A stretch of 64,000 nt of DNA, taken from the IMG/VR virus record IMGVR_UViG_2718218452_000012, one strand, 5' to 3'. Below are positions 39,001 through 45,000 of this stretch, one piece after another. The stretch comes from a virus (lineage: Duplodnaviria > Heunggongvirae > Uroviricota > Caudoviricetes). The position numbers were made by a program. Positions within the stretch are counted from its first letter, which is position 1. Each line of letters begins with the position of its first letter.

Positions 39001-42000
39001 GATCCGGAGTCTCCGGAATCTTTCATGAGGCGACCTAAACGTCGCCGTTGGGTAAATGAGAAATATACGAGCTGGGTGAAGACACAGCCGTGTGCGTGTT
39101 GTGGTCAGCCAGCCGACGATCCCCATCACCTGATTGGTCACGGTCAGGGAGGGATGGGAACAAAATCCCACGATATTTTCACGCTACCGCTGTGTCGGGA
39201 GCATCACAACGAGCTTCATGCGGATCCGCTGGCGTTCGAAGAAAAGCATGGTTCCCAGATTGATTTAATTTTTCGTTTTCTTGATCACGCCTTTGCAACC
39301 GGCGTGCTCGGGTAAAAGAGGTTACTGATGCGTATAGAGTTTGTTTTGCCTTACCCGCCAACGGTGAACACCTACTGGCGGCGTCGTGGCAGCACATATT
39401 TTGTATCAAAAGTCGGTGAGCGTTATCGCCGTGATGTGGCGCTTATTGTTCGCCAGCAGCAACTGAAATTAAACCTGTCCGGAAGGCTGGCAATAAAAAT
39501 TATTGCAGAGCCACCGGATAAGCGCCGTCGTGACCTGGACAATATCCTGAAGGCACCACTGGATGCACTGACGCATGCGGGGCTGCTCATAGACGACGAG
39601 CAGTTTGATGAAATTAATATTGTGCGCGGTCAGCTTGTTCCTGGTGGGCGGTTGGGGATAAAAATCACAGAACTGGGGTGCGCATGAATAACCAGTATTT
39701 ACAGTTTGTGCGTGAGCAGCTCATTATCGCCACCGCTGATTTGAGTGGGGCAACAAAAGGTCAGCTTGAAGCCTGGCAGGAGAATGCCATGTTCGATACA
39801 GGGCGTTACAGGCGTAAAAAAATCCGGTACCGCGATGAAGTGACTGGAAAAATGATAACGCGGGATAATCCACCAATCCCGGGAAAGCAATCGCTGGCGA
39901 AGGGGACGTCAATTCCTCTGGTCAGTCCGATTGAGTTTTCGACATCATCGTGGCGGCGGGCTGTTCTGTCTCTTGAAGAACATCATAAAGCCTGGTTGTT
40001 GTGGTGTTACAGCGGGAGTATTTGTTGGGAATATCAGATCGCGATAACACAGTGGGCGTGGAATGAATTTAATACTCAATCCGGTACCAGAAAAATTGCA
40101 GGGAAAACGCAGGAACGCCTGAAAAAATTAATCTGGCTGGCGGCGCAGGCAGTAAAAGCAGAACTTTTTGGTGGGGAAGGTTATGAATACAAGGAGCTGG
40201 CATTACTGGTGGGAGTGACAACTAAAAACTGGTCCAAAACATTTACTCGTCACTGGGTTGCAATGAAACACATTTTTCACCGACTGGATAGTGAGGCTTT
40301 ATTGTTTGTAATGAGAACGCGTTCAAAACAAAAGGCGGCATTTTCAAAGCAAAGTGTTGCAAAAGTAGATTGAAAGGCATATATTTCATGCAAATCTGAT
40401 ATTTTGCCGATTTTGTACGTGATGGCAAAAGCAAACAAAACCCGCCCACAAGCGGGTTTTTTTGTGCCACTTATCTCGGATAGACATGGTGAATGCGCTG
40501 GTGGAGGAAGCAAGGGTAATTTTTAACCAGGTGATTCTTGAATGCTTGCAACATTGATTTCGTAACGTTATTATCCTGCGCCCGGCCCTTTAGCTCAGTG
40601 GTGAGAGCGAGCGACTCATAATCGCCAGGCCGCTGGTTCAAATCCAGCAAGGGCCACCATCACATACCGCCATTAGCTCATCGGGATAGAACGCCAGCCT
40701 TCGAAGCTGGTTTCGCGGGGTTCGAGTCTCCGATGGCGGTCCATTATCGGTATTCTGCGTTTTTAGCTCAGCCGGACAGAGCAATTGCCTTCTAAGCAAT
40801 CGGTCACTGGTTCGAACCCAGTACAACGCACCACACTTATTTTCCCTCGCTCGCTTTTGCGGACCTTTTTTGTATCCGCACCACGCCCGGCGCATACCAA
40901 CCACAGAGCCTTTCGGGGGGAGCTTATGGAGTGGTCAGTGTGACTTTCTCTGTGGGCAGATCGCTCCCGGGCGTTGGCTCACCCACCCAAAGGAACGTCA
41001 CGATGTTTGGTATTTTTGGTAAAAAAAGCCCGCAGAGCGGCAACGGAAATTAAAAAGTTTGAAAAACGCGATCTGGCACAGGTGGTGATTAACGCCGCAT
41101 ACCTGGTGGCCTGTGCAGATGGTGAATGTGAGGCTTCCTAGAAAGCGAAGATCGAACAGGTACTGCGTAATCAGCCTGCGCTGTACGCGTTTACGTCAGA
41201 AATTAATGCGATTAGCGCAACCATTATCGGTCAGCTGGATACGAACTTTAAAACTGGTCGTCGTGCGGCGTTACGTGAGATCGAGGATGTGAAACACGAT
41301 ACGCGTGAAGCGGAAGATGTGCTGGATGTGGCGGTGGCCATTGCGGAGGCAGACGGCGAAATTGAGCCGGAAGAGCGCAAGGTGCTGGAAGAGATTGCCG
41401 GTGTTCTGGGTCTTCGTCTGGAGAATTACCTGTGACGGTAAAACTGCGCCTGACTGTGGCTGCACTCCTGCTGTTTCTGGTGGTGATGGTGGATTTCACC
41501 AGCAGAATCATGTCGGTGCTGGCGGATGGGGTGCTGGTCTGCGGCATTATGGTATTGCTGTGGCCGGTGATAAAAAGAAACAGCCTGCATAATGCTTGAT
41601 TTTTTTGTTTGCTGTTTATTAAAAACACTTCTGCATGGTGAATCCCCCTGTGCGGTGGGGCAATCAGCAAGAAGGAATATGGGGTAATCGCGGATTCAGG
41701 TGCTGATACTGAATTCACCGGGAGGCACCCGGCACCATGCTTTGCCACAAAAGTGTTATTTCTGTTTTTCTCAAACTATCATCGTTATCCCTTTATTTTC
41801 GGCTGCGCATGGCGCGGCCTTTTTTTTACGACCAGCCACTGGCAGATGGTCATCCTGTGATTTGATTCCGCTTCCGGCTTTTTAACTCTGTTCCTCTACA
41901 CGGGAGAAATTCGATGTCGATTAAACATTATGATGTTGTCAGGGCGGCGTCGCCGTCAGACCTTGCGGAAAAGCTGACACACAAACTGAAAGAGGGCTGG

Positions 42001-45000
42001 CAGCCATATGGCGGACCGGTTGCCATTACGCCGTACACACTGATGCAGGCGGTGGCTATTGAAGGAGAGCCACAGGTCGGCCCTTCATCTGAGCCGGATT
42101 GGTACTACGTCATCGTACTGGCCGGGCAGTCCAATGCCATGGCTTACGGTGAAGGGCTTCCGCTGCCGGATTCATACGATGCTCCGGATCCGCGCATTAA
42201 ACAGCTGGCGCGCCGCAGTACAGTGACGCCGGGCGGGGCTGCCTGCAGATATAACGATATTATTCCGGCTGACCACTGTCTGCATGATGTGCAGGATATG
42301 AGTACGCTGAATCATCCGAGGGCTGACCTGAGCAAAGGGCAGTACGGCTGTGTCGGCCAGGGTTTACATATTGCCAAAAAACTGCTCCCGTATATCCCGA
42401 ATAACGCGGGGATCCTGCTGGTACCATGCTGTCGTGGTGGTTCGGCATTTACCCAGGGCGCGGAGGGGACATTCAGCGAGTCCACGGGGGCCAGTCAGGA
42501 TTCGGCACGCTGGGGGGTGGGCAAGCCGTTATATCAGGATCTGATTTCCCGCACAAAAGCGGCATTGCAGAAAAATCCCAAAAACGTTCTGCTGGCCGTC
42601 TGCTGGATGCAGGGTGAGTTTGACATGAGCGCCGCCACCCACGCACAGCAACCTGCGCTGTTTACAGCCATGCTGACACAGTTTCGTGCTGACCTCTCCG
42701 TGTTTAACGCGCAGTGCCATGGTGGCAGCGCTGCAGATGTGCCGTGGATTTGTGGTGACACGACGTATTACTGGAAAAATACATACGCTACCCAATACGA
42801 CACCGTGTACGGCGGGTATAAAAACAGGGAGAGTGAGGGCGTTTATTTTGTGCCCTTCATGACAGACGGTAACGGCGTCAATACCGCCACTAACGCGCCG
42901 GCAGAAGATCCGGATATTCCGGCATCAGGATATTACGGTGCGGCATCGAGAACGAATGGAAACCAGGTATCATCAAACCGCCCGACACATTTCAGTTCAT
43001 GGGCGCGCAGGAGCATTATTCCGGATCGTCTGGCAACCGCTATTCTGAACGCAGCCGGGCGCACCTCAGCCTTCATCAGTGGTAAGGCACCGGAAATCAA
43101 ACCCTCGCCCGGCGGCAACACGCCATCGGGTCCGTCTGCAGATACGTCCGTTCGCACAATCTCCCTGCTGCCGGCAGCCGGAGAGGCTGCTGCGCAGGGC
43201 TGGAGCATTAAGGATGGCGGAATTCAGTTGTCAGATGGTGTATTTAAGATCATCAACCGCATGGTGAATCCTCCTTGGAGGGGCTAAATGATCGAGTTTT
43301 AAGGGCACGTAGCGAGTTCTGTTTGATCATTGCAGAACTTAGCGGGAGGCGCCATGCGTACATCACTAGTGTTATTCCTTTTATCATTTTCCTTGTGAGT
43401 TCTGGCTGCGCATTGCGCAGCCTTTTTTTTATGACCTGCCACTGGCAGATGGTCATCCTGTGATTTGATTCCGCTTCCGGCTTTTTAACTCTGTTCCTCT
43501 ACACGGGAGAAATTCGATGTCGATTAAACATTACGATGTTGTCAGGGCGGCGTCGCCGTCAGACCTTGCGGAAAAGCTGACACACAAACTGAAAGAGGGC
43601 TGGCAGCCATACTTTTTTAATAAACAGTAAACAAAAAAGTCAAGAATTATTCATTCTGTTCTTTCATCATCGGCCACAGCAATACCACAATGCCGCAGAC
43701 CAGAGCGCCATCAGTCAGTACCAACATTATCCTGCTGGTGAAATCCATCATCACCATCACTAAAAGCAGGATCACAACAGCAAGCAGACACAGTTTATAA
43801 AACAATGTTCAGAAAACGCATTCAGCATGCCTAAGGTTCTATTCCTACGAATAGCCAACTTGCAACTTAAAATATTATTTATGCAGCCAATTAAATTCTG
43901 GTCCTTACAATATCAACCTGAAGATTCTTATCTTGTGCTGATTGATAAATGACAAACCTTTTACTACCTGCATTGAAAGAAGTAGACAAAACCAGACAAT
44001 TATCATAACGAGCAAGAACATAATACCAACCATCATTATAATTAATCATTTCATATTCTTTCTTAAACTGTGGTTTGTAATATCCTGTCAGAAATGAAAA
44101 AAGCCAAAAATATGCCACAAAAGCAATCATCACAATCTCAAAAAAATGTTTTTTATAAATGGCTTATCATAGAAGCATGATACCGATAAAAATCGCCCAT
44201 AAGATCTTATCGAAATTGTAACCGCCAGCGCAATCGCTGCTGACAGTAGCAAAAGAGGTACCTGAATCTTCTGTCTCAATATAGAAAACTCAATAATTGC
44301 CGGCACAAACAATAATTCCACAGCAAAATAAAGGCGAAATACATTTAGCTCTTGCATAGAATGTTTTCTTTTCACTGCGAAAAAGAATACAACACCAATA
44401 CCCCAACCGATAAGAAATATAGCAATGACGATAACTGCAAAAAATAAACTTCTGGCAACATCATCAACACCTGCACCTACAATCCACCATGGGAAGCCGT
44501 AGTAAAAAGAAGTACCCCATCCATAGAAATAAGCACTCCCCCATCCAAGGCATCCCATGTAGGCAATAAAAAGTGAAGAACTCCTGAGCAGCGCACCATC
44601 CTTCATAACCACCCCAATACAAGATGATAACATTGGCTTACAACTCATAACAAAAGCAATTCAATGCCGTCAAGAGGTTACAGGCTAAAAAAACTCTATT
44701 ACATAGCAGCCAGCATGTTTACCGTACAAGTACAACTCAGGGCATAAAAAAAACCCACTCGGCAGCGGGTTTATACATTTTTTACAACATACCAAATTTG
44801 CATGAAGTATATGGCTTTTAATCCAGTTTTGCAATATTTTGCTGTAAAAATGCTGCCTTTTGTTTTGAACGTGTTCTCGTCACAAGCAATAAAGCATCAC
44901 TATCAAGCTGTAGAAAAATGTGCTTCATTGCAACCCAGCGTTCAGTAAATGTCTCGGACCAGTTTTTTGTTGTCACTCCCACCAATGATGCCAGTGTCTG

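Follow-up and report, generated by a model that had tools for sequence, protein, structure and literature searches.

Among the closest described relatives of the locus reported here are the tci genes of phage P1, in which tciA, tciB, and tciC follow one another with overlapping start and stop codons. All three were scored as non-essential in a CRISPR interference (CRISPRi) screen (PMC10695390). TciA is TerB-like, and a passage in PMC11003894 that cites Turkovicova 2016 mentions a reported interaction of TerB with TerC, an integral membrane protein. The TerB-tciB pair is also carried by pSLy3-type phage-plasmids (PMC9600943). Here, we analyze two short genes in a 64,000-nucleotide (nt) stretch of Caudoviricetes DNA (IMG/VR record IMGVR_UViG_2718218452_000012, referred to in full as the window), one in the late region of each of two prophages, A and B. 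The original prediction had described their products as paralogous small hydrophobic peptides. Judged by sequence, both are tciB genes (copy A, tciB-A; copy B, tciB-B) of a known phage accessory family first named in P1. As a whole, they are best explained as accessory genes whose product is the inner-membrane partner of TciA and whose local copies have been orphaned, a reading that we hold with moderate confidence.

Identity and distribution of the two tciB genes

Both open reading frames (ORFs) match Pfam family PF13064 (DUF3927) above its cut-off of 25 bits (copy A, 60.4 bits, E = 1.7e-16; copy B, 53.0 bits, E = 3.4e-14), as well as PHROG 1470, "TciB-like" (E = 1.8e-29 and E = 2.5e-17, respectively). 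The name "DUF3927 family protein" is already given to both by the NCBI pipeline and RefSeq. The counterpart of copy A in strains Res13 and C7, WP_000216649.1, occupies the equivalent position, and WP_000499454.1 is annotated at the copy B position in strain C7. The curated TciB of phage 434 (CPT_434_69, UMO75333.1) matches copy B at 100% identity. Further clear homologues are P1 TciB, gp28 of the N4-like phage Pollock, and gp74 of Pantoea phage LIET2, with the P1 and Pollock proteins aligning along the motif. A search in other lambdoid prophages had been proposed as a check; homologues are present in 434, P1, Pollock, LIET2, and many Escherichia coli genomes.

The protein encoded by copy A is MTVKLRLTVAALLLFLVVMVDFTSRIMSVLADGVLVCGIMVLLWPVIKRNSLHNA, and that encoded by copy B is MFYKLCLLAVVILLLVMVMMDFTSRIMLVLTDGALVCGIVVLLWPMMKEQNE. 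The core claimed to be common to both, DFTSRIM-VL-DG-LVCGI-VLLWP, matches each exactly. BLASTP aligns the two proteins with 22/31 identities (E = 5e-16), and the DNA of both loci forms an inverted repeat (41441-41625 versus 43614-43796, 80-87%). Of the intervals first assigned to the peptides, the plus-strand one (41486..41599) is in frame, running from the internal Met19 to the stop codon, while the minus-strand one (43639..43749) is out of register; the true frame of copy B has its stop codon at 43647-43649, and its codon 20 begins at 43748. Copy A starts with a GTG that shares bases with the TGA ending the upstream TerB frame (GTGA) and is preceded by GGAG 8 nt 5' of the start. Copy B has a TTG start and no recognizable Shine-Dalgarno sequence. 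Both genes had been placed downstream of Q, correctly so, as PF06323 Q genes lie upstream of each on the same strand (Table 1).

The short length and exclusively non-ATG starts could suggest chance ORFs in sequence rich in hydrophobic codons, with no gene present. We exclude this explanation, given Pfam and PHROG E-values of 1e-14 to 1e-29, homologues in unrelated phage types with saturated synonymous sites, and the 117 clusters (at 50% identity; nearly all of 45-65 amino acids [aa]) obtained when 1.84 billion representative proteins were searched exhaustively with a profile.

The copy A ORF was matched in about a quarter (1,341/5,426) of complete E. coli genomes. Matching genomes carry a median of 2 and a maximum of 10 such places, and sampled O157:H7 and O145:H28 records have 5-6. 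Two copies in two prophages are thus the normal state and not an oddity. The family had previously been catalogued and annotated and is common in E. coli prophages; the observation is correct but is no discovery. Its weight as a finding is low, as the family is already in Pfam, PHROGs, and RefSeq, and several copies per prophage-rich E. coli genome are usual. The residual value is that of a pointer to the tciA-tciB pair as a cassette spread widely among lambdoid, P1-like, pSLy3-like, and N4-like phages; jumbo phages may have a diverged version of it.

Selection and predicted anatomy of TciB

The pattern of substitutions indicates that the TciB family is under protein-level purifying selection, with residues 21-48 constrained. 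The ratio of nonsynonymous to synonymous divergence (dN/dS) is 0.45 for copy A versus P1; for copy A versus Pollock, synonymous sites are saturated and dN is 0.31. Between copies A and B, the corresponding ratio of proportions (pN/pS) is 0.31 over the core codons 21-48 versus 1.31 over codons 2-20, meaning that the N-terminal halves display no constraint between the copies. Because of this value, the N-terminal segment is taken to be either free to vary or exchanged via recombination. Mosaic tciB alleles that mix A-type and B-type ends do exist.

Among 78 representatives, the best-conserved positions are S28 (92%), D21 and D32 (91% each), F22 (87%), and R/K6 (81%), followed by V18 (79%), S24 (77%), P45 (73%), and R/K25 (70%). 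Residues D21, F22, S24, D32-G33, and W44-P45 are kept in both copies; S28 is replaced by Leu in copy B. On a helical wheel, D21, S24, R25, S28, and D32 fall within a 100-degree arc, i.e., on one helix face, and the hydrophobic moment of residues 21-32 is 1.56. This polar stripe is followed in sequence order by G33, A/G37, G38, and then W44-P45. Hydropathy peaks twice, near residues 14 and 38, and dips near residue 28. The net charges of copy A are +2 at the N terminus, -1 in the middle, and +2 at the C terminus; the C terminus of copy B has a net charge of -1. Together with the positive-inside rule, the charge layout suggests a hairpin with both ends cytoplasmic. A profile search against the PDB retrieved no related solved structure, even at E = 10.

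Other identities were considered and rejected. A holin assignment has no Pfam holin hit, and a class II holin of its own is encoded 2.6 kb farther downstream in intact relatives. For a type I toxin-antitoxin system (Hok/Sok-like), the only Rfam sok match is at 37114-37288, and the STnc100 small RNA (sRNA) downstream of tciB lies on the same strand and is not antisense. For an anti-phage defense system, PADLOC returned no hit for either tciB copy or for 434 gp68; TciA was marginal (E = 0.0018).

Recurrent pairing with TerB-family genes

In most lineages, the tciB start abuts or overlaps the stop of a TerB-family gene (tciA), and the tciB Shine-Dalgarno sequence is embedded in the conserved C-terminal Leu-Glu codons of tciA. 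The same pair occurs as gp27-gp28 in Pollock and as gp75-gp74 in LIET2. A degenerate DNA pattern retrieved 10 loci from species-representative genomes, one of which (Nakamurella) is a chance match; in 9/9 true hits (Enterobacterales and Aeromonadaceae; genera including Enterobacter, Pseudescherichia, Rosenbergiella, and Pantoea), a TerB-like ORF of 141-142 aa ends at the tciB start. TerB-like genes are present in 131 phage records. Among those sampled, the gene after TerB in the Erwinia jumbo phage ChrisDB (gp7) is TciB-like but diverged; it retains the WPLIK motif and lacks both Asp residues. A different small protein with a single transmembrane (TM) segment directly follows TerB in Pseudomonas phages Lana (gp47) and AF, and Vibrio phage K479 has no small membrane ORF after TerB. 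Lana gp47 (locus 1138-1353) and the AF ORF (∼1145-1340, unannotated) have their TM segment at the N terminus and, after it, the motif C-x-WYGYQT...GCMV.

That genes for a soluble TerB-like protein and a tiny membrane protein recur side by side is the basis, with the TerB-TerC report in support, of the partner model that we favor. TciB would be a ∼50-aa helical hairpin in the inner membrane, both ends of which carry Lys/Arg and lie in the cytoplasm. The polar stripe (D21, S24, R/K25, S28, and D32), the small residues G33, A/G37, and G38, and W44-P45 could form an interaction or ion-binding surface. The soluble partner would be TciA, a TerB-like protein of the metal-binding type, and translational coupling may set a fixed TciA:TciB ratio in the lytic phase, under Q control in lambdoid phages. 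The pair may act on the envelope of the infected cell, e.g., in stress tolerance or in the exclusion of colicins or superinfecting phage. It would be dispensable for plaque formation and constitute an accessory cassette in the stx slot.

Several points weigh against this model. No TerB-DUF3927 fusion attests to the association, as the three long hits are frameshift or chimeric artifacts. Phage 434 and ∼600 E. coli genomes carry the B type without TerB. Among 80 A-type viral contigs, TerB is intact in 27, has an in-frame stop in 43, and gives only partial alignments in 10, while a near-identical match to tciB is found in 80/80. TciB may thus not need TciA; because the A-type contigs are themselves near-identical, however, a tciB kept beside a dead TerB is no proof of selection for tciB without tciA. 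At the level of structure, AlphaFold2 predicts one straight helix (residues 2-54; predicted local distance difference test score, 92.9) for the isolated monomer, which neither supports nor excludes a hairpin, and each hydrophobic segment is only ∼14-16 residues long without residues 21-33. In the literature on DUF3927, TciB, tciA, and the peptide motif, we found annotation-level mentions only and no functional study. The "tci" name and its tellurite/colicin/cell division label derive solely from the homology of TciA to TerB.

The main alternative is that TciB is an autonomous membrane-active peptide (an oligomeric pore, a depolarizing toxin, or a lysis-timing modulator). The stripe would then line a channel, and TerB would be an optional regulator and no obligate partner. 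The size, two-segment layout, and basic ends recall class II holins and pinholins, and a narrow D/S/K/S/D stripe with a small-residue motif is of the kind that lines pores or helix-helix contacts. Such a peptide would also fit the position of the gene on the late transcript just 5' of the lysis genes in lambdoid phages, the persistence of the TerB-less B type in a viable phage (434) and hundreds of genomes, and the intact tciB beside a dead TerB in many prophages. The persistence of near-identical copies, however, reflects recent ancestry and not selection, and the B type has a TTG start without a Shine-Dalgarno sequence. Intact relatives already own a class II holin, an endolysin, and spanins; the gene lies outside the lysis cassette in P1 and Pollock and is non-essential in P1. 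We therefore regard an autonomous TciB as possible but unlikely.

An extension of the partner model is highly speculative, and we give it little credence. TciA-TciB would be a two-component phage device, in which a TciB oligomer, assembled via D21/S24/S28/D32, conducts or senses cations and is gated by TciA. Lambdoid, P1, N4-like, and jumbo phages would use it for conditioning the envelope of the host or excluding competitors, and the TerB-less 434 type would be a deregulated derivative.

The two prophage modules

The features surrounding the two copies are collected in Table 1.

Table 1. Annotated features around tciB-A and tciB-B, in window coordinates
Feature	Position	Strand	Remarks
Q-A antiterminator gene	39678..40373	+	Pfam PF06323, 310 bits
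Promoter-like site, read as pR'	40357-40385		Downstream of Q-A; consensus scan
Terminator-like hairpin, read as tR'	40437-40460		Downstream of Q-A; consensus scan
Three phage tRNA genes	40584..40833	+	CAT anticodon, Arg-TCG, Arg-TCT
tciA-A, TerB-family pseudogene	41003..41435	+	Pfam TerB PF05099; intact homologues known
tciB-A, DUF3927/TciB-family gene	41432..41599	+	55 aa; GTG start
STnc100 sRNA (RF02076)	41604..41776	+	100.8 bits versus gathering score of 47; begins 5 nt past tciB-A stop
Intrinsic terminator	41801-41829		After STnc100; terminator scan
nanS-p-like SASA esterase gene (DUF1737 + SASA)	41914..43287	+	Truncated at nt 1339 by joint J1
361-bp piece natively following tciB-B	43252..43612	+	Flipped here relative to tciB-B
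tciB-B, DUF3927/TciB-family gene	43647..43805	-	52 aa; TTG start; 434 type; no TerB partner
Frameshifted homologue of phage 434 gp68 membrane protein	43891..44648	-	247 aa in 434; upstream neighbor of tciB-B
Terminator-like hairpin	44772-44751		Downstream of Q-B; scan
Promoter-like site	44834-44806		Downstream of Q-B; scan
Q-B antiterminator gene (82/434 type)	44818..45591	-	Pfam PF06323, 307 bits; 99.67% identical to phage 434

In prophage A, the tciA-A reading frame is shifted by 1 nt near codon 6 and meets a stop where the annotated frame has its codon 45; the NCBI pipeline flags it as "internal stop." This broken form is widespread among A-type viral contigs. The order in intact prophage A relatives is Q, tRNA-Ile(CAT)/Arg/Arg, a TerB-family gene, DUF3927, STnc100 with its terminator, SASA (nanS-p), holin, lysozyme, and spanin, and intact relatives of the nanS-p-like esterase have 616 aa. 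In Stx2 phages, STnc100 lies 75 nt downstream of stx2 (PMC12370729). Because STnc100 follows both, the TerB-DUF3927 pair occupies the Q-controlled cargo slot that in those phages belongs to stx2.

The CAT tRNA (40584-40659) is called Met by ARAGORN and annotated as tRNA-Ile (ileX-like) by RefSeq. A tRNA-Ile(CAT) gene also immediately follows tciC in P1 (P1 locus 1934-2009). Given its presence in both P1 and prophage A, the tci cassette and the CAT tRNA travel together in two unrelated phage types. No ORF like P1 tciC was accepted after copy A; the sole candidate (41592-41687) overlaps STnc100 and has no conserved counterpart in either the B type or 434.

The 3' end and flank of tciB are more alike between the loci (41579-41625 versus 43614-43660, 87%) than the ORF body (80%). 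This flank holds TTGATT/TTGACT, 15 nt, and TATTAA just 5' of CATGGTGAATCC, the conserved start of STnc100, and joint J2 (see below) cuts exactly after the element. From its sequence, the element could be a promoter of the STnc100 sRNA.

In prophage B, window positions 43613-47253 are the reverse complement of phage 434 nt 39559-43191 (99.67%). The gp68 homologue, which has no Pfam or PADLOC hit, lies 85 nt from tciB-B and is frameshifted in strain C7 as well. An LpxR lipid A deacylase gene (45983-46942, plus strand; PF09982, 137 bits) lies upstream of Q-B on the opposite strand, as in 434; this cargo gene could modify host lipid A.

Rearrangement joints and the state of the local copies

Both prophage late operons are cut off by rearrangement joints. 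The 361-bp piece is 100% identical to phage 434 nt 43191-43551 and contains a divergent STnc100 copy, a terminator (43404-43431), and the first 32 nanS-p codons. Joint J1 (43252/43253) fuses this piece to prophage A nanS-p at nt 1339, and joint J2 (43612/43613) abuts the 3' flank of tciB-B. The 434-type sequence is thereby broken at a single point, AAAAAA^TCAACC, with microhomology of ≤1 nt at either joint. J1 and J2 are spanned by none of the complete RefSeq E. coli genomes and by no IMG/VR contig; either the two prophages have undergone a complex rearrangement here, or the assembly is chimeric. Inversion in place of 28935-43612 as one block was rejected as an explanation, as flipping it restores continuity on neither side.

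The second STnc100-like element (43231-43433, plus strand) scores 37.6 bits, under the Rfam gathering score of 47, and is therefore missed by default. The same stretch of the phage 434 record (locus 3656-3844) is annotated as a coding sequence for a 62-aa "putative membrane protein" (CPT_434_70); this gene call may in fact reflect an sRNA.

The two copies had been proposed to encode a conserved, functional small membrane protein rather than to arise by chance. This holds at the family level, with the membrane location being a prediction only. Function within this genome is doubtful, as both copies sit in degraded modules, copy A beside a TerB pseudogene and copy B without TerB and without a Shine-Dalgarno sequence. 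A stronger form of this doubt is that the window ORFs are non-functional relics, alike through shared descent and lambdoid recombination, with part of the DNA conservation serving the start or promoter of STnc100. The dead tciA-A, the frameshifted gp68 beside copy B, and the late operons truncated at J1 and J2 fit such relics, as do the mosaic alleles, the lack of constraint between the N-terminal halves (pN/pS of 1.31), and a 3' flank that is better matched than the ORF. Nevertheless, both ORFs are uninterrupted and keep the family-conserved residues (Leu for S28 in copy B excepted), the core codons remain constrained (pN/pS of 0.31), the family as a whole is clearly constrained, and a viable phage shares copy B unchanged. 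We consider relics plausible for this genome, although improbable overall. Under the partner model, both window copies have probably been orphaned, with tciA-A dead, tciB-B a 434-type recombinant without tciA, and the late operons cut.

Wider structure of the window

Relative to E. coli C7 (NZ_CP010240.1), the window is a mosaic. Positions 28935-43256 are the reverse complement of part of the prophage at tRNA-Ser/mtfA (99.97%), and 43613-64000 match the prophage at ybhC (99.9-100%); in C7, these prophages are ∼1.17 Mb apart in the same orientation. A zero-spacer inverted repeat is centered at 28934/28935 (arms 27743-28934 and 28935-30126; 1192 nt, 99%), with weaker mirror similarity (84-97%) reaching 18733 and 39315 and with mirrored DicF copies (27835-27886, plus; 29983-30034, minus). 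By comparison with C7, the center lies inside an exonuclease gene, and no complete E. coli genome spans it. Because a long palindrome with a perfect center is expected to be unstable, this structure is either a notable rearrangement or a misassembly.

Other Rfam matches are cspA-type thermoregulator leaders (13918-14302 and 16812-17204, minus), sok RNA (37114-37288, plus; hokD locus), an IS3-family ALIL frameshift pseudoknot (52420-52536, plus), and the lambda cIII thermoregulator (56969-57027, plus). These are consistent with three lambdoid prophage remnants lying side by side.

Comparison with known systems

Like class II holins and pinholins (S21 and the 933W S type), TciB is small, with two hydrophobic segments and charged ends, and is encoded on a Q-dependent late transcript. 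Unlike them, it has no sequence relationship to holins, and its gene is not beside the endolysin, lying outside the lysis cassette in P1 and N4-like phages.

The terZABCDE (ter) system, the source of the "tci" name, resembles the tci pair in that a soluble TerB-family protein is matched with an integral membrane protein. TciB is nonetheless without sequence similarity to TerC. Among the neighboring ORFs in the window (Q, tRNAs, SASA esterase, etc.), no TerC, TerD/E, TerZ, or TerA was found; the TerB pseudogene is the only ter relative. Measured against an intact tciA-tciB module, copy A keeps the gene order and the GTGA overlap but has a broken TerB, and copy B has no TerB.

Phage 434 has a TciB identical to that of prophage B and shares with it the upstream membrane protein gene and a Q82-type antiterminator. 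It differs in retaining the native order of tciB, a STnc100 variant, a terminator, a full-length SASA esterase, holin, and endolysin; in the window, gp68 carries a frameshift, and of the sequence past tciB only the next 361 bp remain, in flipped orientation.

P1 TciB (P1_gp075, YP_006541.1) has ∼48% identity to copy A. P1 differs in being a plasmid prophage whose tci operon is not downstream of a Q antiterminator and in having an extra 35-aa membrane ORF, tciC, that is absent here. In common with the window copies, P1 TciB belongs to the same Pfam and PHROG families, is of similar length (54 aa), and shares the motif VDFTS..LSVL.DG.LV....WP..K; like tciB-A, its gene directly follows a TerB-like gene, whose stop codon overlaps the tciB start, and it has a tRNA-Ile(CAT) gene beside the operon.

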